Virus record (IMG/VR): IMGVR_UViG_2802429248_000002
DNA length: 41,518 nucleotides
Source: a virus
Taxonomy: Duplodnaviria > Heunggongvirae > Uroviricota > Caudoviricetes
Strand: one strand, 5' to 3'
Part shown: positions 2,757 through 35,349 of the stretch, piece by piece
Layout of the letters: every line of letters starts with the position of its first letter
Position numbering within the stretch: position 1 is the first letter of the stretch
The notes under the pieces: generated by a model
Databases searched by the model: none
The model's input: the letters and a program-made list of their open reading frames with translations, nothing else
What the model was told of the DNA's origin: nothing
Position numbers and translations under genes: made by a program

Positions 2757-3147
2757 CGTCTTTTCTCCCCGGAATTAAATCGCGTGGATTGTCTGAACGG
2801 TGGTAGAGCCATATACCAATACGCACAGCGACAATTGCTGACACGAATGCGCCAGCAGAGAAAACAATCCCTTTTTCAAAAGAGTCCTGCGTGATGGTAG
2901 GGATCAGGCTGGCTATGCCGATAAGAATTGATGCTGCTGGTTTGTAGAAAAGAAGTCCACAGAGAAAGCTAAGCATCGATAAGAGTACGCGACGATGAAT
3001 TGGGTACTCTACCGCAGAGGTAACAAAAATTACCGCACCAGCAAGAGCACCGAGCGCCACCTCTGGCGGAACGCCTACGATAACTGCAGCAAGAGAGCTC
3101 ACACTAAGCCATTGATTTAAAGAATCAGTAGTTAGATGGGCTGACAT
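2743..3147 (-). CDS. Multi-pass membrane protein, putative holin/antiholin or lysis accessory
   Basis: Start taken at internal ATG (MSAHL...); the longer track ORF begins with GTG. 3-4 predicted TM segments; overlaps the start of the downstream holin-like gene. Confidence 0.4.
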   Translation of the reverse strand: MSAHLTTDSLNQWLSVSSLAAVIVGVPPEVALGALAGAVIFVTSAVEYPIHRRVLLSMLSFLCGLLFYKPAASILIGIASLIPTITQDSFEKGIVFSAGAFVSAIVAVRIGIWLYHRSDNPRDLIPGRKDDGNA

Positions 3148-3376
3148 AATGAACACCGTTTATTACGCATAACAATCTCCTTACTATTGAAGATTCACAC
3201 ATAATAAACCATTTAAGGATAATAGTTACCTCAAAACGCTGTATTTCTACCTTCTACGGCAATGAAAATTTCGTTCAGAAAATGGTCTAGTGTACCTCTC
3301 AGTCACAATTAAAGAAGAAAGAAGCCGAACTTACTTCGTAATAAGCAAGCCGGCTACTAAGATTAATCCTCAATAT

Positions 3377-6133
3377 TTAGCTACTTTCAAGCATTGCAAG
3401 ACGTGATTCTATTTTTTCGATTCTTCTACGCAAATAAGCTGACTCAAGCCATAAACACTGGTCAGTACGGATACCCCACCTATTTCCAGCCTTGCAAACC
3501 AGAGTTCGCTCTTCTGTTTCGTATTCTTCTTCCATCTCAATTTCGACGCCATCCACAACTTTAGTGATCATCCTTACCGCCATCACTGGCGCGTATTTAT
3601 CATCCCATTCATCGTAACAGAGAAGGCCAAATCTGGTTCCATCAATCCCATGCGCGAGGAAAGTGTCTCTCACTTGTTGTGCTATAACACCAAAATGCCA
3701 GCGGGCACCATCTCCCTTTTCCCTGACGGCATCAAGCCAGCGAAAAGCTACAATCCTGATATCTCCCCATGCATCCAGAATTGCATCACCTTCATAACCA
3801 CGAGACATATACAAGCTGAGCTCACTTGTACTAATCGGTTCACTTTTTTCTCTACCATCTGATGTGTTTATCGAACCGTTCGCAGAATAAACCTGTGCCC
3901 ATCTAAATGATGGTGCACCAAGAGATTTGCTGTTATCAATAATTGGTGAAAAATTACCTTTAATAGCAATATTTCCAGAGTCGCCGAATATATTAATAAC
4001 TGCAGAGTCATCACCATGGTTTTTTACGCTTAAGTTTCTTGATGAAATATTTATATCTTTGTTATATCCACTAACATTAATCCATCTTTTACCATCAATG
4101 TGATACCCGTAAATATTTCCGTTTGATTGTTCGTCAGGTGACTCTCTAAGAACAATAGCATCTACTCCAGACGACCATTGTATTTTTGTATCTGTAGGCC
4201 TCCAGTTCTTTATAATGAACGAACCATCAGTAAACTCCGTTTTTATTTGTCTATTGTCTACAAATGCGTCTCTTGGTTTAAACTCACTTGTGTTAACGCT
4301 GCTCTGAAGATCAGAAGCAAAAAATCTAAGATTTCCTGTATAACCCTTAGTCTCGGTCAGGTTATACGCAATCATAATTCCATTTTCAAACTCAGATGAT
4401 GTTATTTTAACATCACGGCAATCACCAAAAATGCAATTTCCTTTATCAAATGTTGTTTGAGCTTTGAATTTATCAAACCTTAAATTACGAACAGGGAAAC
4501 CATCAACCTCTAATGCAAAGGATGCAGGAAGGCCAAAGTATTCTGATGGCTTACCTGATGTATGATCAAGAGTAGTGGCTACTGTATTCTCAAAAACAGT
4601 CCCGCTAAAATTATTACCAATTGACGGAAACCTGATTACACTTATTGTACCTTGTATTTCAGGAGAAATACCAGATAGTGTGATGTTAGCTCCATCAAAT
4701 GATGCATCTGAATACGTATATACTGATTCACTGCCAGCAATTTTAAACTGTTTAACTGAAGTTATTCTCATCGACTTTTTATGTTTAAATGTCACTGAGC
4801 TTTCAGTATTACTTACAAGATCAATCTGAGGGCTATTCCTTATCGCGATCCCTGACTGGACATAAACGTTATTAAAGTGCGTTTTTTCAGGATTTCCCTT
4901 CATTGAAAGGCTCCCGTCATTTTCTGTCAGTAGTAGTCCTTTTACCCTCCAATAGCCGACAATCTGTACGTTATCAATAACTGAATCACAGCTATCGTAT
5001 ACATGCAACCCTATATCCCAGTCATCACCCAATGAATAAGAATCAGGGTTATTGTATCCTTCAATACCATTTTTACTTACCATTATTCTCAGGTTGCGTA
5101 ACTGTGATGCCCTGTTGATACTAACAGCTACGCTCATGGCTTTTGGTGTAGCAGGAGTAACACCTACAGAATCTTCATTTGTAAACTCAGTGAACTTACA
5201 AGATATCCCTTCAACAATTTTAACTGGTCTTTCATTAGAGATGTTAAAAAAATATTTGTTTTTTTCTCCATCACCAGTAAATACAAGATGGGTTCCTTTA
5301 CTCCAACTTTTTAATAATCTTTCAGGCGCTGGTCTATATGTATCCCAATAATCAATGCCATCACCAATTAAAGACACTCCAGGAGGCACATCTATGTTCT
5401 TAGAAATCATCCATTTACCTGCAGGTATTCTAACGACACTTGCACCAGAATTTATCGCATTAATTAACCATTCAGACGCATCAACTTCAAAATTTAATGC
5501 AGCATATCTTTGCTCAAACGGAACAAAATCAAGAGCGTTAACGTTATCCCGCATCTTATCCTGGAACGTTCGGTATACTGCTCCAGAACCATACTGAATA
5601 AACCAACCAAAACCACCAACAACTCCGGCGATTGCAGCATCAACATAATTGCGCATTGATCGATTATTTACAGCATCCTGCTCAAGTGATGGATCTGCAA
5701 GGTTAGAAATTTTGTTTTGCTTTGCATCGTAATATTTTGCAAGCAAAGATGGTTTCATCAATGCACGTCTGAACCATCCAAAACATTGCTGGATCAGCAT
5801 CGTCAGATAGTCAAAGGCATCTTCATGCACCTCGGGGAAAAATTTTCCCTGATTACGAAGATCAGTCTCCTGCACCACATCAAGCACACGATCTATCGTA
5901 ATTCGCCATCCAGCAGCAAGCGGCGACGGAAGAACAACAGAACCGCCACTATAAGTGCCCGCCCCTGTTACCGTATAACCGGTATCCAGAACCAATTCTG
6001 TTACGTTCCCGTTCAGGTCAGACACCTGAACAACCAGGTCGGATTTTTTGAAAATACGGAAGGTATACGGAAATGATGTCGTAGCTCCGTTACCTGTGTA
6101 TTCGTTGTGGTCAACTTCGGTTGAGACCGTCAT
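3377..6133 (-). CDS. Tailspike protein with C-terminal intramolecular-chaperone-like domain
   Basis: 918 aa. N-terminus MTVSTEVDHNEYTGNG..TSFPYTFRIFKKSDLVV resembles the conserved particle-binding head of epsilon15/phiV10-type tailspikes (memory). Central region is Asn/Ser/Gly-rich as in beta-helix depolymerases. C-terminal ~150 aa (..TSDGREK..) resembles the self-cleaving chaperone domain (peptidase S74-like) of endosialidase-type tailspikes. Confidence 0.8.
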   Translation of the reverse strand: MTVSTEVDHNEYTGNGATTSFPYTFRIFKKSDLVVQVSDLNGNVTELVLDTGYTVTGAGTYSGGSVVLPSPLAAGWRITIDRVLDVVQETDLRNQGKFFPEVHEDAFDYLTMLIQQCFGWFRRALMKPSLLAKYYDAKQNKISNLADPSLEQDAVNNRSMRNYVDAAIAGVVGGFGWFIQYGSGAVYRTFQDKMRDNVNALDFVPFEQRYAALNFEVDASEWLINAINSGASVVRIPAGKWMISKNIDVPPGVSLIGDGIDYWDTYRPAPERLLKSWSKGTHLVFTGDGEKNKYFFNISNERPVKIVEGISCKFTEFTNEDSVGVTPATPKAMSVAVSINRASQLRNLRIMVSKNGIEGYNNPDSYSLGDDWDIGLHVYDSCDSVIDNVQIVGYWRVKGLLLTENDGSLSMKGNPEKTHFNNVYVQSGIAIRNSPQIDLVSNTESSVTFKHKKSMRITSVKQFKIAGSESVYTYSDASFDGANITLSGISPEIQGTISVIRFPSIGNNFSGTVFENTVATTLDHTSGKPSEYFGLPASFALEVDGFPVRNLRFDKFKAQTTFDKGNCIFGDCRDVKITSSEFENGIMIAYNLTETKGYTGNLRFFASDLQSSVNTSEFKPRDAFVDNRQIKTEFTDGSFIIKNWRPTDTKIQWSSGVDAIVLRESPDEQSNGNIYGYHIDGKRWINVSGYNKDINISSRNLSVKNHGDDSAVINIFGDSGNIAIKGNFSPIIDNSKSLGAPSFRWAQVYSANGSINTSDGREKSEPISTSELSLYMSRGYEGDAILDAWGDIRIVAFRWLDAVREKGDGARWHFGVIAQQVRDTFLAHGIDGTRFGLLCYDEWDDKYAPVMAVRMITKVVDGVEIEMEEEYETEERTLVCKAGNRWGIRTDQCLWLESAYLRRRIEKIESRLAMLESS

Positions 6134-8898: not shown

Positions 8899-11373
8899 TT
8901 ATTGCGGAGTGACATCCTGAGGTCGCCACCAGTATGTCTGGTTAAACTCTTTCTTCGAACGTTGCTCCATTTTACGCAAATAGCCTGGTGAAAAATACTC
9001 CTGCATCTGGTTAAAGATCATATGATCGAGAGCCGCCTTCAAGTACCAGAGATTCGCACCTGGCATCAGCCCCTTCCCCAGCTTAACCAGATCACCACCA
9101 GTCTGCTCACTCTTCCCTTCCACAGCATTTAGCGGTATGCCCTGAGCTATCTTCACTACGTCATCAACCAGACCAGCTACCGGGCCAAGCATCGACGCCA
9201 GCGCGCCGCTCCCGTACCTAGTGTGGTCAGAGAAAAGAAAATCACCGTACAACCCAGCCCCGCCACCTTTTAAAAATGCATTTATCCAGAATTTAACCAT
9301 GTGGTCACCGGTCATTTCCTTTGGATTTCTCCCATTAATAAGATCAGTAATCTGCATGGAAAGAGCACCAAGCATGGTTGTGCTTGCTAAAAACGTTGCT
9401 ATATATGCTGCACGCCCACCAGCAGACGGCATACCCATAGCGCGTGACCAGTGACGCATAACAACCGAGATAGGGAACGATTTAAACAGGAAAACACTTC
9501 TCGTTAATTCACCTTTCCATGTTCCACGCTGAAGACCAGACCCTACGAACATCTGCTCACGTGCGCCCGGTGTAATAACAGCCATATCAACTTCTTCAGT
9601 TACGGCACCGAGCAGTTTACGCATTGCCTCAAATTTCACGCGTTCAGGCTCACCAAGATGTTTAACTGCTGAATCAGGGATACGCATAATGCTTTCCGGT
9701 GTCAGCATCGTATTATTACCGTTCCCCCAGTCCTCCTGTTGCGCCAGCTTCCATACGCTCCAGTCTGTGTCAGTAATCCCTTTACTTTTCAGGATACGAA
9801 AATCAGAGTCATCGAGGCTACGAAGGTCTGGTGTCCGTGACACTACTTCTCCCAGGCTTCCCATCATGGTTACGCCATAGGCGCGCTTGTGCGCATCTGA
9901 CCATGCTGTAAGCCCACTGGCACGCATTACCGCCGTTGCCGCCCAACGAGACACAGACGGCCCCATATTATCCATCGCCCAGCGGTTAACGCTGCCAAGT
10001 AGAGATTCCATCGCCAGGCCAGCGCGGCGCGCCCGCGCAAGCTCAGTACGGTTCGTTGGGTCCATAGCTTCAAGCTGGTTGCGAAATAACTGGTTCATTG
10101 GAAGGTTGGTAACCTTCGCAGACAGATACATGGTTCCAAGATCAGAGAACGATGACAGCAACGCGGATCCGAGTCTGCTGGCAACCAGCCAGTTGCGGAT
10201 ATTGTCAGACCATCGCGCGATGTGCGGATTCGCTACAGGCTGTGTTTTTCCGGAAATAAAGTTGTACAAGTTCTCTGTTTTGTTCGCCAGACGCTCGACG
10301 CTACCGGTTTTACTCGGGTTAGCTGTTGCCGTTTCTGCCTTAACCTGATCAAGAAGGGAGCGGAAAACATGATCGGGGTTTGGACCATATGTTTCCACCA
10401 GAGCAATATCTTTACTGATACCTTCCAAGTGACCGACCATGATTTCCCATAGAGAGCGATCACCATAAAGTTGTTGATATTGGAGATAGGAATCTGCATC
10501 TTTGAAATGTATCTGTCGTGATGCATTACCACGGTTAGCACGTGCGCCGGAAATTCGCATTCCGGTATCAGTAAGCTTATTCAGCCCACCAGTAGCGATC
10601 GTGTTATAAGCCTCTCCAAGAAATGCAGACAACTCGGCATCGTTCATCAGTTGTCCATCGGCTCGGGTATAATATTTGCGATCCAGCTTACCTATAACAT
10701 CGCCAACCCACTTATCCTTTGATACCGCCCCAACCTTTTCCATAGAATGATGTTGAGGGATCCCCCAGTTTTCGAGATAGCCAATGTCCCCACCAGCATC
10801 ATTAAACCGGCGGCGCAGCAGCTCTGTAACTTCTCTCCACGCCTTAGCACCTTTTCTTGCTTTAGCATTGCCAGTATTTTGCCCCCGCATTTCATATACC
10901 AGGTCACGTACGCCCGCTTCATCTTCAAACAGACCAAAAAAGCGAGGATCAACTGCTTCGAATGCCTCCTGCAATTGACTCAATGCATAATCACGGGTGG
11001 CTTTTGTTCTGGATTCAACAGAGAGGAAATTAGATTTACCGTCTGCATTAAAAGCTATAGTACGGTTAAGAGCTCCAAGTTTCCCATCAGCCCCTTGATA
11101 GCTATTGATAAATTTATCCAATCTCTGACGCGCGGCTATAGTGAGAGCCACACGACGTTTCTTTAATGCCGCTTCTCGCTGTAATTCTTCAGATGCCAAT
11201 TGTGCTGCTCGATATAGCCGCTCTGATTCGGAAAGTTGTCTCCACGACATCGGGTCATCACGAGCAATGGAGCGCATATTTCGATAAATGCGGTCTTCAA
11301 TGTTCTGTATTTCTCGCGCCGTTAACGTGCGCTGCGCCGCCTGCTGGACCGCTTGTATACATTCCTGTCTCAT
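8899..11373 (-). CDS. Large internal virion (core/ejection) protein, gp16-like by position
   Basis: 824 aa, last large ORF of the internal-protein series preceding the tailspike module; assignment by size and synteny only. Confidence 0.5.
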   Translation of the reverse strand: MRQECIQAVQQAAQRTLTAREIQNIEDRIYRNMRSIARDDPMSWRQLSESERLYRAAQLASEELQREAALKKRRVALTIAARQRLDKFINSYQGADGKLGALNRTIAFNADGKSNFLSVESRTKATRDYALSQLQEAFEAVDPRFFGLFEDEAGVRDLVYEMRGQNTGNAKARKGAKAWREVTELLRRRFNDAGGDIGYLENWGIPQHHSMEKVGAVSKDKWVGDVIGKLDRKYYTRADGQLMNDAELSAFLGEAYNTIATGGLNKLTDTGMRISGARANRGNASRQIHFKDADSYLQYQQLYGDRSLWEIMVGHLEGISKDIALVETYGPNPDHVFRSLLDQVKAETATANPSKTGSVERLANKTENLYNFISGKTQPVANPHIARWSDNIRNWLVASRLGSALLSSFSDLGTMYLSAKVTNLPMNQLFRNQLEAMDPTNRTELARARRAGLAMESLLGSVNRWAMDNMGPSVSRWAATAVMRASGLTAWSDAHKRAYGVTMMGSLGEVVSRTPDLRSLDDSDFRILKSKGITDTDWSVWKLAQQEDWGNGNNTMLTPESIMRIPDSAVKHLGEPERVKFEAMRKLLGAVTEEVDMAVITPGAREQMFVGSGLQRGTWKGELTRSVFLFKSFPISVVMRHWSRAMGMPSAGGRAAYIATFLASTTMLGALSMQITDLINGRNPKEMTGDHMVKFWINAFLKGGGAGLYGDFLFSDHTRYGSGALASMLGPVAGLVDDVVKIAQGIPLNAVEGKSEQTGGDLVKLGKGLMPGANLWYLKAALDHMIFNQMQEYFSPGYLRKMEQRSKKEFNQTYWWRPQDVTPQ

Positions 11374-25311: not shown

Positions 25312-25388
25312 GTGGCATTAGCTCAGTTGGACAGAGCAACCGCCTTCTAAGCGGTTGGTCGCAGGTTCGAATCCTGCATGCCACGCCA
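25312..25388 (+). tRNA. tRNA-Arg (anticodon UCU), phage-encoded
   Basis: Cloverleaf readable by eye: acceptor GTGGCAT/ATGCCAC, D-arm GCTC-AGTTGGACA-GAGC, anticodon stem ACCGC/GCGGT with loop CTTCTAA, variable TGGTC, T-arm GCAGG-TTCGAAT-CCTGC, discriminator G, encoded CCA. Confidence 0.9.
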
Positions 25389-30095: not shown

Positions 30096-30605
30096 TCACT
30101 CTCCTTTGATGCGAATGCCAGCTGCGCTTGCTGATTCTTCATATGCGCGTTTAGCAGCGTTAAGGATTGCTGCCAGTGGCGTATAGCCGCCATCCATTCG
30201 GATTGTGTTGTGGATGCCAGCCATTGTGTCGCGCAATTTGCTGTGGCTAGCAGACAGTTCTGCTATGCACTTCTCTGCGGCATCGGCTCGATCTTTTTCA
30301 CGCTGGAACATTTTGTGAGTGCGGTCTATAGCTTCGATTCGTGCCGCTGATGTCTTCTGCACGGCTTCAAGCTCAACACGCAGCTTCCCAACCGTAAGAG
30401 CAATATCCTCGTTCTCCTGGTCGCGGCGTTTGATGTATTGCTGGTTTCTTTCCCGTTCTTCCAGAAGCGCCAGCACAATATGTGGCGTTATCAAGGACTT
30501 AAATTCGGCAACAGCTTGCTCGCCTCGCTTGTAATTCTTAATCCCACCTAAATCTTTCGCGTTCTGTGCCGCCTCACGCAGTGCCTGATAGTCAATTTTG
30601 CTCAC
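30096..30605 (-). CDS. Ead/Ea22-like coiled-coil protein
   Basis: 169 aa, charged coiled-coil, early-left region of a lambdoid phage; family assignment from memory. Confidence 0.45.
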   Translation of the reverse strand: MSKIDYQALREAAQNAKDLGGIKNYKRGEQAVAEFKSLITPHIVLALLEERERNQQYIKRRDQENEDIALTVGKLRVELEAVQKTSAARIEAIDRTHKMFQREKDRADAAEKCIAELSASHSKLRDTMAGIHNTIRMDGGYTPLAAILNAAKRAYEESASAAGIRIKGE

Positions 30606-30858
30606 TGGTTGCCTCCGCTTCCCACGTTTTCAGACTTTCACCACAGAACGGGCAAAATGAAACTCGAATTGGTGATTTAGAAAATTCACCAGACCGCAGC
30701 ATGATCAGGTCTTGTGAATGAATTAATTCATGGTTATAGATTTTGTATATCAGCAGACCTTTTCGCGTCGTGTATTCAGCAGCCCGCTCCAGTGATTGTG
30801 CCAACGCCGCGCACGGTTCTATCTTGTTGCCATTAATTTTGCATTTTGACTCACTCAC
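30592..30858 (-). CDS. Small protein with C-terminal CxxC zinc-ribbon
   Basis: 88 aa; ..CPFCGESL.. near the C-terminus plus upstream Cys; translationally coupled. Confidence 0.4.
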   Translation of the reverse strand: MSESKCKINGNKIEPCAALAQSLERAAEYTTRKGLLIYKIYNHELIHSQDLIMLRSGEFSKSPIRVSFCPFCGESLKTWEAEATSEQN

Positions 30859-30904
30859 TGGTTGCCTCCTGTTAAATTTTCTGTGATATCAGCGTTTACG
30901 ACGA

Positions 30905-31912
30905 TCATTCACATACACCGGCATAAACACTGCTGCACACCGTCTTATCGTTCGTGCTCGCCAGTAGGTCAAATTGAGCGCCACCTCGGGTTGTCATTGC
31001 CCAGTCGCGATAGGTTTCGATTCCGTAGCTGTCTACGGTAACTACATCTATGCGACGTTCTGCCCGGCGTGGGTCATGAGTTGACGGAAAAAACGTTGAG
31101 TTGCCGTGGCGAGAGCAGGCTGCAACTAATCGTTCCCACTCTGCCACTCTGGCGATTTCCTCTGGCCAGCGCTGAAAAATTTCCGCCAGTTCAGATTTTC
31201 TGGCATGAATGCATGGCATACACCCAACGCGGCCGCATCCTTGTTGGTAGAGTGGGTTGGGTTTAATCCCGTGACGCCTGGCAATAGCGAAAACATCCTC
31301 ATGTAGCCAGTTGAGAATCGGACGATAGACATGCAATCCGGGGGTATTGTCCGCATCCTCCTCCCACACTTGCAGGCGTGCCCTCGATGGCGATTCCTGA
31401 GCACGCACACCCTGCCAGGAGATAACTTCGTCATATTCATCAAGCGCAGGTTGCACCACCTGAGTGCGCACTGGTTCGTGTTTCAGTTCGAATGTACAGA
31501 ACCGCGCTTTAGTACTCGGGAAACGACCTTTCCACATGCACAGGTCAAGAAATGGATTTCCGGTTGGGTGTAGGATTTCCAGCGCACGAGCAACACGTTC
31601 CGCTGCTTCATCAGGCGTCATTCCGCACTCTGCAACAAGAGATACTGGCCATTTTTCAGCAATGAATTTGCGCTTACCTTCTATCTGGCGAGTGAAGTCG
31701 GCTTTTACGCGACGAATTGGGCCCAGCTTTTGTTCCAGGTAGTCAAGGTACTCCATCGTTTGTGGGTGTTCGTGTCCCGTATCAGCAAACACTCGCTCAT
31801 GCTGTATATCGTTTTCTATGGCATACAAACATTGCGCCAGTGAGTCTTTCCCGCCAGACATGGAAACCAAATTAAAAGTGTTTTCTGCTCGGCAGCGCTG
31901 AACGATGCTCAC
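30905..31912 (-). CDS. PAPS reductase-like / PP-loop ATP pyrophosphatase family protein
   Basis: 335 aa; N-terminal PP-loop motif VSMSGGKDS; Cys-rich C-terminal half (CGRVGCMPC). Confidence 0.7.
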   Translation of the reverse strand: MSIVQRCRAENTFNLVSMSGGKDSLAQCLYAIENDIQHERVFADTGHEHPQTMEYLDYLEQKLGPIRRVKADFTRQIEGKRKFIAEKWPVSLVAECGMTPDEAAERVARALEILHPTGNPFLDLCMWKGRFPSTKARFCTFELKHEPVRTQVVQPALDEYDEVISWQGVRAQESPSRARLQVWEEDADNTPGLHVYRPILNWLHEDVFAIARRHGIKPNPLYQQGCGRVGCMPCIHARKSELAEIFQRWPEEIARVAEWERLVAACSRHGNSTFFPSTHDPRRAERRIDVVTVDSYGIETYRDWAMTTRGGAQFDLLASTNDKTVCSSVYAGVCE

Positions 31913-32529
31913 TGGCCGCCTCCTTTGCGAAGATCTGCGGCCAACTCGTCACATATGTGCGTCAAAGAGCAAAGTTTGATTGATGGATGTTCGCGCATCA
32001 TCTCCACCCCCTGCGCCCGCACTTCAGCCAGGCATTTGCGAAACTCGGAAACGTACTGTTCGACGCTCATTCCCCAGCTAAGTGGACATTCATTGAATGT
32101 TTCGCCTTCGTGCTCTTCATCAGGTAGCTCTTTGGTAAAGAACTCACGCTCAATGGCGTGGAGTGTGTCAGCAAAACGACGTAAGTTACTCAAACCTACC
32201 GTAATGGAGAATTCAGGAGCATCACATCCGACGCCCATCTGCTGATAAACGGCGGTTTTGAAGGCCTTAAGCCCCGCATTCTCCGCTGCCAGCGCCGAAA
32301 ACTTCTCGTGTGCCAACTTAACAGCTGCATCAGCCTGCTTAATTGACTCAATCGCTTTCTGCTGGTCTTCGGCCAGCGCATTAGCACGCACCAGTTGCAC
32401 TTCCAGTTGCGTTGCCAAATCGCTGATCAGCTTTGCCACACTGCGCATATCAACGGCACCACATTCTGCTTTCAGTTCCGAAGCCATCTCATGCCCGGCG
32501 GCAACTAACCCTTTGATATTACTTTCCAT
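31909..32529 (-). CDS. Hypothetical early protein
   Basis: 206 aa helical ORF, overlaps the downstream gene start by 4 nt. Confidence 0.45.
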   Translation of the reverse strand: MESNIKGLVAAGHEMASELKAECGAVDMRSVAKLISDLATQLEVQLVRANALAEDQQKAIESIKQADAAVKLAHEKFSALAAENAGLKAFKTAVYQQMGVGCDAPEFSITVGLSNLRRFADTLHAIEREFFTKELPDEEHEGETFNECPLSWGMSVEQYVSEFRKCLAEVRAQGVEMMREHPSIKLCSLTHICDELAADLRKGGGQ

Positions 32530-32590: not shown

Positions 32591-32938
32591 TCAGAACTCT
32601 TCGATGTTCCAGCCACCACCTGCTTTCTTTGGCTTAACCGTTACCCCGATGATTCGGAACGGATACTGATCTGCGGCGACTTTGGTTTTCACTCTGGCGT
32701 CATCGGTCCAGAATCCCCCTTTCACTTCGTGCAGTTCCATCTCGCCGGTGGCGAGCATCACAGCAAAATCTGGCGTATAGAACGTGTTGTCAGCTAACCG
32801 CAGCTTGATACCCTCAAATCGATACCAGACGATTTCTCCTGCACGTTTACGCAGCTCAAGGTGCTGGCAATACGCAGATTCTGTTTTGTTCATCTGGCCT
32901 GTTTTGAGTCGACCAAGAGCCTGCATCTGTTTTCTCAT
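32591..32938 (-). CDS. VRR-NUC-like (PD-(D/E)xK) nuclease domain protein
   Basis: 115 aa; motif ..YTPDFAVMLATGEMELHEVKGG.. fits the D...E.K catalytic arrangement of VRR-NUC domains (memory). Operator palindrome 4 nt upstream of the ATG. Confidence 0.55.
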   Translation of the reverse strand: MRKQMQALGRLKTGQMNKTESAYCQHLELRKRAGEIVWYRFEGIKLRLADNTFYTPDFAVMLATGEMELHEVKGGFWTDDARVKTKVAADQYPFRIIGVTVKPKKAGGGWNIEEF

Positions 32939-33055: not shown

Positions 33056-33856
33056 TTACTTGATAAATCCTGACGCCTTTCCCCGCCTGTATTCCTCCAT
33101 CAGCCACTGCGCCGGTGTTATTCCCCCAAGGGTGGCGGCGTTAGGCATGCACCCGAAACTTCGCCCTGGTGGATGGTAAACGTCTCTCCCTGTGTCCGGA
33201 GGCGTACTCATGGGTTCTGGCTTTGCCTGTATGCTGATCACCGGATCGGGTATCTGCTGTCCGGAAGCCACCTTTTTCGCCCAATCATCGAGCAGCCTGC
33301 GCGCGTGTTTCTCAACCTCAATCTCGCTAAGCTGGCGCTGATACATTGCACGGCGGGTATCACATACGACCCAGTACATAACCTGATGTCGCCACGGGAA
33401 TCTTTCGGGACCACCAGGATATAAACTTTTTTCCTTGCTGTACCGGTGAAACTCCGCCATCACATCGTCAATGGTGACGCCAAGAACCATCTTGCTGTCT
33501 TTACACCACTTGATGAATTGCCCTGGCGACGGCCAGAACGGAGAATCACTGGCGCGGGCGTGGCGCATACCAGCAGAAACCTGTTCACGGGTTCGGATCC
33601 CCCCTTCGGCAAACGCAGCAATCCACTGCTGTTTTGCAGCAACTTCCTGCTCTGGCGTCTTCAGGTTGGTTACCACTGCCGCCGGAAACAGTTGTTTCAG
33701 CTGTTTGAAAAGGGCATCAACAAGCCTCTCTGCTGACATGTTCACTACGTTGTCATTGTTGGTGTACTGATGCTCATAACCTGACATGCGAGAAAGGGCT
33801 TCTCCGTCACGGTTTTGTATTGCGGTAAAAACGTTGTTCACAAGAAATCCTCCCAC
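33056..33856 (-). CDS. Replication protein P-like (DnaB helicase loader)
   Basis: 266 aa; segment WIAAFAEGGIRTREQVSAGMRHARASDSPFWPSPGQFIKWCKD aligns with the lambda P core (..WVLAFRENGITTMEQVNAGMRVARRQNRPFLPSPGQFVAWCRE..) from memory. Confidence 0.7.
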   Translation of the reverse strand: MGGFLVNNVFTAIQNRDGEALSRMSGYEHQYTNNDNVVNMSAERLVDALFKQLKQLFPAAVVTNLKTPEQEVAAKQQWIAAFAEGGIRTREQVSAGMRHARASDSPFWPSPGQFIKWCKDSKMVLGVTIDDVMAEFHRYSKEKSLYPGGPERFPWRHQVMYWVVCDTRRAMYQRQLSEIEVEKHARRLLDDWAKKVASGQQIPDPVISIQAKPEPMSTPPDTGRDVYHPPGRSFGCMPNAATLGGITPAQWLMEEYRRGKASGFIK

Positions 33857-34653
33857 GCTTCAGGGCTGTTCCAGTGCGGAACGTTGTTATCAGGTAATGT
33901 TGATTGCTTCTGTCTGCTAATCTGCAGCCGCCTTGCCAGCTTCTGCTCCCACTGTGCCTGATGGTATGCCTTACCCTCAGCCATCCAGTAAATTCTGAAC
34001 TCTGCAAGTTCCTGTGCCGTTGGCAGACTGTCCAGGTAGATCCCCTGCAATGAGCTTTTCCGAAGAAAGTCATCTGATGGCTGCCATTGTTCATGCATGA
34101 CAAATTTGCCTAATTGCCCTGGCCCACCAGGAGGAACAAAGTTATTCATCACGGCGTTGTTTGCGCCGGGGTCATGATGCACAGAATCCCCGTTTTTTGT
34201 CCTGCTCTCCCTCTCTTGGTTAAATGACTGGTTATATGACTGGTTCTGGATCCCGTTTTTGGGATCATTCAACATCCCGTTTTTGGAATCATTCAACATA
34301 CCGTTTTTGGGTATATTCCCGTTTTCGGTAACATTACCGTTTTCGGGTTCATTGCCCCCCTCTCGGTTGCCTTTAATGTTCCCGTTTTTGGTTATATTAA
34401 GAGAGAAAACCCGCACTCTTTTTGTCGCTCCCTTTCTCTCCCCGGTATCTGAAATAAGCCCCATTTTCATGAGCGATATAAGTCCGGCCTGCACGGTTTT
34501 TTTATTCAGGCAAGTGTCTTTAACGAGGCGTTCTATGCTGGGGTAGCAGAGGTTATATTCATCGGCTCTGTCAGCCATCGAGAGCAGTATGAGCTTTAAT
34601 GACGAGCTACCTGGATCTGTCTCCCAGGCCCAATCTGTTGCATGTCTGCTCAT
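33838..34653 (-). CDS. Replication initiator with N-terminal HTH and DnaT-like C-terminal domain (O-equivalent)
   Basis: 271 aa; C-terminus LGKFVMHEQWQPSDDFL...ELAEFRIYWMAEGKAYHQAQWEQKLARRLQISRQ resembles E. coli DnaT (memory). Central Asn/Gly-rich repeats are encoded by iteron-like DNA repeats. Confidence 0.65.
   Translation of the reverse strand: MSRHATDWAWETDPGSSSLKLILLSMADRADEYNLCYPSIERLVKDTCLNKKTVQAGLISLMKMGLISDTGERKGATKRVRVFSLNITKNGNIKGNREGGNEPENGNVTENGNIPKNGMLNDSKNGMLNDPKNGIQNQSYNQSFNQERESRTKNGDSVHHDPGANNAVMNNFVPPGGPGQLGKFVMHEQWQPSDDFLRKSSLQGIYLDSLPTAQELAEFRIYWMAEGKAYHQAQWEQKLARRLQISRQKQSTLPDNNVPHWNSPEAWEDFL
34251..34392. repeat. Iteron-like array: six copies of (C/A)CCGTTTT(T/C)GG inside the replication initiator gene (putative ori)
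   Basis: Copies begin near 34251, 34276, 34300, 34317, 34336 and 34381, spacing 17-45 bp; also a direct repeat ATGACTGGTT x2 at about 34223-34246. Confidence 0.5.
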
Positions 34654-35019: not shown

Positions 35020-35250
35020 TCATGAGTAGAAGAAGTATGCCAGTTCTGCTTTTGAGCGCAGCCATTGTCTTGATTTACAGGCTTTAAAAAGCCCATCCAT
35101 CAATACCTTACCTGGCATTTTGCGCTTACCTGTTAAGTGAGTCTGGATATAGTGACTCGTCGTTCCGGCTTCCTGTGCGAAGGCTTCACGCTCATCCGGA
35201 GTAAGTGCAAGCCAGTGCTTTTTGAAATCGAAATGTCCGTTATCGCTCAT
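35020..35250 (-). CDS. Cro-like HTH DNA-binding protein (first gene of the leftward early operon)
   Basis: 76 aa; HTH-like segment FAQEAGTTSHYIQTHLTGKR; divergent from the repressor-like gene across an operator-rich 150-bp region. Confidence 0.45.
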   Translation of the reverse strand: MSDNGHFDFKKHWLALTPDEREAFAQEAGTTSHYIQTHLTGKRKMPGKVLMDGLFKACKSRQWLRSKAELAYFFYS

Positions 35251-35286
35251 AGCTATTGCCTGATATTTATTTCAGATAATAAATAT

Positions 35287-35349
35287 TCACCTATAAGGTA
35301 ACAAAAATCAAGGATAGTTACCCATGAGGTGCATTTACCTGTTGGGTAA
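35287..35349. promoter_or_regulatory. Immunity-region operator cluster: three sites (TCACCTATAAGGTAA 35287-35301; TTACCCATGAGGTGC 35318-35332; TTACCTGTTGGGTAA 35335-35349)
   Basis: Clustered palindromes in the divergent Cro-like/repressor intergenic region, analogous in layout to lambdoid tripartite operators. Confidence 0.55.

Follow-up and report, generated by a model that had tools for sequence, protein, structure and literature searches.

The window analysed here is a stretch of 41,518 nucleotides (IMG/VR record IMGVR_UViG_2802429248_000002, a virus of the Caudoviricetes) that corresponds to a phiV10/epsilon15-like (Uetakevirus) prophage; over 80% of the right half, identity to vB_EcoP_PAS61 and phiv142-3 is about 97%. 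On its minus strand, at 30905-31912, lies an open reading frame (ORF) that starts with GTG (31912-31910), ends with TGA (30907-30905) and encodes a protein of 335 residues resembling 3′-phosphoadenosine 5′-phosphosulfate (PAPS) reductases; we refer to it as the PAPS-like gene. An earlier reading made from the letters of the window without database searches (the sequence-only reading) had placed an SGGKDS PP-loop and a cysteine-rich C-terminus in its product, and both are present as claimed: the loop is encoded at 31858-31841, and the C-terminal third contains six cysteines, at positions 226, 231, 234, 266, 326 and 334. The features of the gene are as follows.

30905-31912, minus strand: coding sequence of the 335-residue PAPS-reductase-like PP-loop and putative iron-sulfur (Fe-S) enzyme, orthologue of Orf84 of phage 186 (ORF, PF01507, PHROGs, identity, AlphaFold and selection analysis)
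31908-31923, minus strand: start junction GGAGGCGGCCAGTGAG, read from the sequence, with the Shine-Dalgarno element and the GTGA start/stop overlap with the upstream Eae-like gene
31841-31858, minus strand: codons of the PP-loop S19-G-G-K-D-S24, the ATP pyrophosphatase signature
31496-31498, minus strand: codon of Cys139 in the motif R-F-C-T-x-E-L-K144, a proposed Fe-S ligand
31211-31222, minus strand: codons of C231-M-P-C234 (CxxC), aligning with IGC(E/A)PC of [4Fe-4S] APS reductases (APS, adenosine 5′-phosphosulfate)
30908-30937, minus strand: C-terminal tail C326-SSVYAGV-C334-E335, by its conservation a proposed swinging-arm cysteine and persulfide acceptor

The PAPS-like gene is a real and intact phage gene. 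An AAGGAGG Shine-Dalgarno sequence stands 7 nt ahead of its start codon, which overlaps, in the tetranucleotide GTGA, the stop codon of the upstream Eae-like gene of 206 codons. Purifying selection on the gene is strong, with ratios of nonsynonymous to synonymous substitution rates (dN/dS) of 0.03 when compared to orf84 of phage 186 and 0.10 when compared to a 99%-identical copy. (Note that a 16-nt junction of the form GGAGGC(AA/GG)CCAGTGAG opens three consecutive minus-strand genes, at 31908-31923, 30854-30869 and 30601-30616, with GG at the PAPS-like gene and AA at the other two; three matches are seen and 0 are expected by chance. Modules of the Eae/Ea22 variable region may be exchanged through this junction as a linker.)

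The sole Pfam domain in the protein is PF01507 (PAPS_reduct), which is matched with an E-value of 1.7e-36 (126.3 bits, the cutoff being 22.5); residues 15-236 correspond to profile positions 3-174 of 175. Among PHROGs, the protein matches phrog_15238 (E = 2.8e-111) and phrog_424 (E = 5.9e-84; ‘phosphoadenosine phosphosulfate reductase’), and a search of 1.84 billion cluster representatives (50% identity clusters) returned 372 matches at E<1e-30. We placed the protein relative to DndC, SspD and BrxP by the scores of hidden Markov models (HMMs). Of the PADLOC defence models, SspD ranks first at 84.5 bits, a partial match in two stretches, the better of which covers positions 70-203 of 277 (this model carries no cutoff); BrxP follows with 47 bits over positions 212-334 of 779, and DndC with 20-31 bits. 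All 86 aligned family members match both SspD (best E-value 7e-32) and BrxP, and 67 of the 86 match DndC. The PAPS reductase/DndC-like superfamily named by the sequence-only reading is therefore the right one. No curated NCBIfam model was passed by the protein, including the DndC model TIGR03183 (22.1 bits against a cutoff of 290.4, covering residues 132-209 only), and the gene fits no complete PADLOC system. Its closest affinities would thus put the protein, as a stand-alone PP-loop enzyme, in the DndC/SspD-like branch of the superfamily. Support is good for the enzyme class but not for the substrate or the biological role.

The protein is clearly not the housekeeping sulfate-assimilation enzyme CysH, in agreement with the sequence-only reading, which had leaned away from sulfur metabolism. 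A related alternative is that it is nonetheless a genuine APS/PAPS reductase, encoded by an auxiliary metabolic gene that raises assimilatory sulfate reduction in the infected cell or the lysogen. A sequence search of the PDB finds CysH and APS reductases only (in the C-terminal half only), the same enzymes are the best matches in structure comparison, the CxxC of [4Fe-4S] APS reductases is present together with a cysteine near the C-terminus as in CysH, and many phage genes are annotated ‘cysH’. However, only 180 of the 335 residues superpose, and the scores fall far under every curated cutoff: CysH, APS reductase and PAPS reductase models give 40-64 bits against cutoffs of 154-254 (NF002537, PAPS reductase, 63.7 against 154; TIGR00434, cysH, 43.5 against 165.1; TIGR02057, PAPS reductase, 40.5 against 254.2; TIGR02055, APS reductase, 51 against 235.3), and the assimilatory APS reductase model TIGR00424 gives 15.3 against 553.2. 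Moreover, where the PAPS-like protein has the canonical SGGKDS, the loop is degenerate in CysH and APS reductase, reading SSSFGIQA in E. coli CysH and SFSGAEDV in the APS reductase 2goy. The sulfonucleotide reductases, which bind (P)APS that is already formed, no longer have the loop that binds pyrophosphate, whereas DndC and other PP-loop enzymes adenylate their substrate with ATP. The ECGLH motif of CysH (KRECGLHEG in E. coli, whose CysH is also without a CxxC) is absent from the PAPS-like protein, which ends in VCSSVYAGVCE. In addition, the gene is located in an early lytic operon, and methyltransferases, not sulfur-metabolism genes, are found among the commonest neighbours of the family (see below). 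We consider a role in sulfate reduction very unlikely.

The residues that would carry the chemistry are conserved across the family, as judged from an alignment of 121 family representatives and, for positions conserved at 90% or more, from an 86-sequence alignment (A1). Each residue of the PP-loop is at least 90% conserved in A1, in which C139 and K144 are invariant. Neither C139 nor C231 varies among the 121 representatives; conservation is 98% for C234 and C334, 81% for C326 and about 80% for C125. The GCMPC segment that contains the CxxC aligns residue by residue with GCEPC of the Pseudomonas aeruginosa APS reductase (2goy) and GCAPC of the Mycobacterium tuberculosis enzyme (7lhr), whereas cluster-free PAPS reductases have VGD at this position; the CxxC is thus shared with [4Fe-4S] APS reductases, and a cluster is predicted. 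The family tail has the consensus CxSxYG(L/V)CE, with G332 and E335 conserved at 90% or more, and MAFFT sets it opposite the ECGLHE tail of CysH. In the AlphaFold model the predicted local distance difference test (pLDDT) score is 94.7 overall and 68-78 for the last 30 residues, and this low-confidence tail is presumably mobile. Together C139 and the CxxC form a three-cysteine pattern of the kind described for DndC, which suggests a [4Fe-4S] cluster. The intact PP-loop, the CxxC and the C-terminal motif argue that the protein is an ATP-dependent transferase rather than a reductase; we infer that it is an ATP pyrophosphatase of the sulfur-insertion type, with a putative Fe-S cluster and a candidate swinging-arm cysteine.

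To examine the genomic setting of the family, we called genes crudely in 80 related viral loci (45-99% identity), clustered the neighbours, and compared the positions of D12 and C5 methyltransferases, detected by iterated HMM searches, in 77 of the loci. Conserved neighbours are confined to the syntenic P2/186-like prophages, which fits a self-contained cassette. Nevertheless, 25 of the 77 loci have a D12 or C5 methyltransferase no more than two genes away, in every case on the strand of the family gene. Methyltransferases account for 28 of 299 near genes when compared to 12 of 1,054 farther genes (Fisher p = 6e-11), and outside P2-like contexts one is near in 11 of 51 loci (Fisher p = 2.5e-6), although these p-values overstate the evidence because the loci are not phylogenetically independent. 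In many P2-like loci a D12 (Dam) methyltransferase is directly upstream; in the 51 other contexts, the C5 cytosine methyltransferase is the commonest Pfam family in the 138 neighbours (10 members, to which are added two N6_N4 and one D12 methyltransferase). The association is also seen in cultured phages that are unrelated to one another: in Serratia phage Parlo dam is found two genes downstream of the family gene, and in Agrobacterium phage Rivra and Pseudomonas phage Dolphis a methyltransferase is listed under or beside the match. In representative P0249 a weak methyltransferase-like N-terminal region is fused to the PAPS domain. A second and weaker association is with ParB-like proteins, which are encoded nearby in some loci; it echoes the DndB-DndC and YbdM-YbdN pairs. 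No sulfur-metabolism genes are present among the 25 commonest neighbour Pfam families.

These neighbours bear on another alternative, namely that the same chemistry is directed at something other than DNA (tRNA or other RNA, a free nucleotide or a protein), for example to blunt anticodon nucleases or nucleotide-signalling defences. After the sulfonucleotide reductases, the next structural neighbours of the protein include the tRNA thiolases TtuA and NcsA as well as ThiI, TilS, QueC and Cap9, the last a QueC-like enzyme that modifies a protein of the cyclic-oligonucleotide-based antiphage signalling system (CBASS), and a stand-alone cassette with no DNA-recognition partner would suit such a target. 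Yet a Pfam scan finds no RNA-binding domain (THUMP, PUA) in the protein, the strongest genomic association is with DNA methyltransferases, with ParB-like genes in some loci, and the nearest profiles, SspD, BrxP and DndC, are all those of DNA-modifying enzymes. A non-DNA target therefore strikes us as unlikely. (In the BFVD viral library only other proteins labelled ‘PAPS reductase’ or QueC were matched. Chain C of PDB entry 21fy, ‘PptA’ of 270 residues, matches the family profile with an E-value of 1.7e-6 over a stretch that takes in the CxxC and the next helix; among solved structures this chain may be the closest to the short subfamily of phages and plasmids.)

The surroundings of the gene in the window are those of an early operon, the relevant parts of which are listed here.

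35276-35304, minus strand: promoter-like site TTGTTA-17-TATTAT ahead of the genes of the minus-strand early operon, found by consensus scan only
35020-35250, minus strand: cro-like ORF, the first gene of the early operon
33838-34653, minus strand: helix-turn-helix/DnaT-type O-like gene, after the cro-like gene
33056-33856, minus strand: lambda-P-type helicase loader gene, after the O-like gene
32591-32938, minus strand: DUF1064 protein gene (PF06356; phrog_190, ‘Holliday junction resolvase’)
31909-32529, minus strand: Eae-like gene of 206 codons, directly upstream of the PAPS-like gene
38941-39603, plus strand: MT-A70 methyltransferase gene (PF05063, E = 6e-22)

Downstream of the PAPS-like gene follow, in order, a gene of 88 codons, Ea22-like and DUF551 genes, a regulator and the small terminase subunit, and no promoter of its own was found for the gene. 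The sequence-only reading had assigned it to an early-left operon. The operon does lie to the left in the orientation of the window; by analogy with lambda, however, it would be the replication (PR-type) operon, the gene being placed downstream of cro-like, O-like and lambda-P-like genes. It is the plus-strand (PL-type) operon, running from about 36080 to the integrase, that carries a DUF3799 exonuclease, RecT, MT-A70 and a metallophosphatase. Position near replication genes in an early lytic operon is shared by 186, phi644-2, Parlo, our locus L005 and the window, and suggests that the gene acts while phage DNA is being replicated and not in the lysogen.

The same reading had pointed to a VRR-NUC nuclease in the operon of the PAPS-like gene and to the MT-A70 methyltransferase across the immunity region, an arrangement that does not speak for a common pathway. 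The MT-A70 gene is real; the supposed nuclease, in contrast, is the DUF1064 protein, for which no VRR_NUC match is obtained at E<0.01. Both genes belong to the phiV10-type backbone, being 95-99% identical in phages that do not carry the PAPS-like gene (for MT-A70, 98-99% in phiV10, PAS61, ZX5 and HEMP4), and the homology of the cassette extends over 1023 bp only. We therefore rejected a functional link of the PAPS-like gene to either and regard these local associations as coincidental.

The distribution of the gene points in the same direction. It is absent from phiV10-type relatives that are otherwise about 97% identical to the window and align to the flanks only, and in phiv142-3 other ORFs occupy its place. 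When 50,697 phage records were searched in translation, the protein turned up in 186, phi458, P2-like phages and many non-coli temperate phages (the family is mostly one of temperate phages) and in no phiV10-type phage. Among 5,426 complete E. coli genomes searched by megablast a single one, GDSC2BY4G (NZ_CP136025.1), carries the gene, at 97.4% identity (positions 9001-9957 of locus L086). This copy is in a P2-like prophage, where it separates the portal gene from a group made up of the replication gene, ParM and a stability gene; in a second assembly a 98%-identical protein is encoded at the same P2-like position, between gpA and the portal gene. DNA homology to the P2-like prophage copies spans 30905-31927 only (97-98% identity), that is, the ORF together with its ribosome-binding junction. 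The PAPS-like gene is a mobile single-gene accessory cassette.

More distant members of the family were also seen. Orf4 of phi458 (L004, 2884-4128), a protein of 414 residues annotated as a ‘putative transcriptional regulator’, belongs to the Orf84 family over its full length and is not IbrA-like; its insert is enlarged, its identity is 34%, it shares the CSSxYGLCE end, and it is encoded in an early-left region beside exo, bet and gam. A distant PAPS-reductase-family gene (about 26% identity), which constitutes a separate subfamily, was found in 1,483 plasmid records, mostly of conjugative plasmids. In NZ_AP024125.1, the one IncC plasmid inspected, this gene (L092, 3842-4957) lies near repA, and many IncC-type matches share its coordinates.

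Residence in prophages raises the further possibility that the gene serves the prophage or its host, through superinfection exclusion, defence or co-activation of prophage expression in the manner of IbrA/YbdN. Near-identical copies do occupy the gpA-gpQ interval of P2-like phages, a variable-gene hotspot in which many of the genes are anti-phage (PMC9122126); in addition, the family is mostly found in temperate phages, and YbdN and YbdM of E. coli are themselves a PAPS-reductase-like and ParB-like pair. On the other hand, the gene stands in an early lytic operon on the strand of the replication genes in each of the five loci named above, has no detected promoter to itself, forms part of no complete PADLOC system and has no ParB-like partner among the window ORFs scanned. 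IbrA/YbdN was considered as the closest named relative and rejected: similarity to E. coli YbdN is marginal (BLASTP E = 4e-4 over 113 residues), the PAPS-like protein has no Pfam match to DUF3440, and YbdN is without the CxxC. We hold a prophage- or host-serving function to be quite unlikely.

Our preferred explanation is that the PAPS-like gene encodes a DndC/SspD-like, ATP-dependent Fe-S enzyme, carried as a mobile cassette, that acts most likely on phage DNA for protection, and we assign to this explanation as a whole a probability of roughly 45%. Its steps might run as follows. Translation would take place as part of the early replication operon, to which the order of the genes, the Shine-Dalgarno element and the GTGA overlap assign the gene, and presumably during lytic growth. 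The SGGKDS loop would bind ATP, adenylate an oxygen of the substrate and free pyrophosphate, as its motif and the pyrophosphatase chemistry of PP-loop enzymes, including DndC, suggest. C139, C231 and C234 (with C125 in most members) would ligate a [4Fe-4S] cluster, consistent with their conservation and with the APS reductase alignment of the CxxC. By analogy with the tail cysteine of CysH, the cysteine dyad of DndC and TtuA, C334 in the tail (with C326) could accept sulfur, probably from host IscS, and pass it to the activated substrate. That substrate would most likely be replicating phage DNA, and the gain protection from restriction or from phosphorothioate-linked defence; the niche so proposed is that of the DNA methyltransferases that often adjoin family members. 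A bolder version holds that the Orf84 family is a self-sufficient sulfur inserter that uses host IscS to mark replicating phage DNA, as a phosphorothioate or a thio-base, without DndD/E or SspB/C and possibly guided by, or working together with, the DNA methyltransferases often found beside it. We think this version improbable; if true, it would amount to a new minimal route of DNA thiolation for counter-defence.

The literature offers precedents for a counter-defence role. The only experiment in the literature searched concerns Vibrio podophages, which escaped Dnd once a locus coding for a PAPS-domain/Dam fusion had been swapped in (Piel et al., bioRxiv 10.1101/2021.05.05.442762), and a 2026 survey lists PAPS reductases as candidate anti-defence genes in Aca-regulated operons (PMC13551039). 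Elsewhere phage PAPS reductases are often called sulfur-metabolism genes, or are flagged as unknowns that may be tied to DNA modification. The DNA-modification/counter-defence reading is plausible, and it already serves the field as a working hypothesis.

Several points weigh against our preferred explanation. Among the window ORFs scanned there is no DndA/D/E, SspA/B/C or BREX (bacteriophage exclusion) partner. The 138 neighbours yielded 36 Pfam families, and the 25 most frequent of these include no ATPase, nickase, DNA-recognition or desulfurase partner. It is hard to see how an enzyme on its own would locate DNA and modify it. The gene adjoins no methyltransferase in the window, MT-A70 being unlinked backbone. 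Both the Fe-S cluster and the function proposed for the tail cysteine are predicted from sequence only. The literature searched contains hypotheses only for the Orf84 subfamily, with no biochemical or genetic characterisation and no shown activity. In 186, orf84 is annotated as non-essential, and the single E. coli genome copy is annotated as a pseudogene with an internal stop. The transfer of function by homology is weak because short phage PAPS-reductase proteins (about 190-260 residues, comparable in length to the domain) are only about 25% identical to the PAPS-like protein; the Vibrio fusion, in which a PAPS domain of about 170 residues is joined to Dam, is likened here by description only. 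Thus, of the DNA-modification or anti-restriction role put forward by the sequence-only reading, what survives is the methyltransferase association of the family and the precedent of the Vibrio anti-Dnd fusion; the gene links within the window do not, and neither partners nor a demonstrated modification in the subfamily can be cited in its favour.

Some further observations concern other parts of the window. The O-like gene contains three adjacent tandem-repeat arrays at 34217-34353 (12 nt repeated 2.4 times, 24 nt repeated 2.6 times and 18 nt repeated 3.1 times), which encode Asn/Gly-rich repeats of the NGMLND type and are probably origin iterons, as in lambda O. On the plus strand, the MT-A70 ORF and the metallophosphatase ORF (39480-40259) overlap by 124 nt, and the true start of the phosphatase is probably further downstream. 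A tRNA-Arg gene with the anticodon TCT is located at 25312-25388 on the plus strand, between the structural and packaging genes and on the strand opposite to its neighbours. The interval 3000-6000 is a block of low G+C content (0.36-0.42 compared to about 0.50 elsewhere) that holds a minus-strand ORF of 918 codons (3377-6133), and may be a horizontally exchanged tailspike or host-range module.

PAPS-reductase-like genes are among those most often labelled ‘cysH’ auxiliary metabolic genes in studies of phages and viromes. The intact ATP loop, the failure of all sulfonucleotide-reductase models, the occurrence as a single-gene cassette in early operons and variable hotspots and the frequent methyltransferase neighbours indicate that at least the Orf84 family is not CysH, which argues against counting such genes as sulfur metabolism. 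The gene in the window is one more copy of the known 186 Orf84 family, and the gain from its analysis is mainly a correct annotation. Note that orf84 of 186, being non-essential and deletable, is a tractable gene with which to ask if a temperate phage adds sulfur to its own nucleic acids or defeats immunity that relies on phosphorothioates.

When compared to named systems, the protein shares with SspD, DndC and BrxP the PF01507 core, SGGKDS, an R-x-C-T-x-x-L-K segment and cysteines compatible with a three-cysteine [4Fe-4S] cluster; for DndC, such a three-cysteine cluster and a proposed sulfur-accepting cysteine dyad have been described (PMC10853773). It is, however, much shorter than DndC and BrxP and is without DUF4007 (BrxP, of about 780 residues, consists of a PAPS domain plus DUF4007), it has no dnd, ssp or brx neighbours in the window scan or among the commonest families of related loci, and its CxSxYGLCE tail is specific to the Orf84 family. 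Two segments of the PAPS-like protein have no counterpart in CysH and the APS reductases (2goy, 7lhr): a helical insert at residues 70-130 (about 60 residues) and a C-terminal extension some 90 residues long. With the Vibrio PAPS/Dam fusion it has in common a phage-borne PAPS-reductase domain and, in many P2-like loci of its family, a link to a DNA adenine methyltransferase. The closest counterpart is Orf84 of phage 186 (NP_052288.1; CP84), to which the protein is 82% identical over residues 3-335 (82-84% when counterparts in P2-like/Eganvirus prophages are included). The two agree in length (334-335 residues), PP-loop, cysteines and CSSVYAGVCE end, and both are encoded by accessory genes of early operons. 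They differ in setting: orf84 is directly upstream of, and translationally coupled to, replication gene A, and the 186 record reads ‘unknown function; not essential; translation to end of orf84 appears necessary for translation of A protein’, whereas the gene in the window follows lambda-type O and P genes and is part of the Eae/Ea22 variable region in a phiV10-like podovirus prophage.

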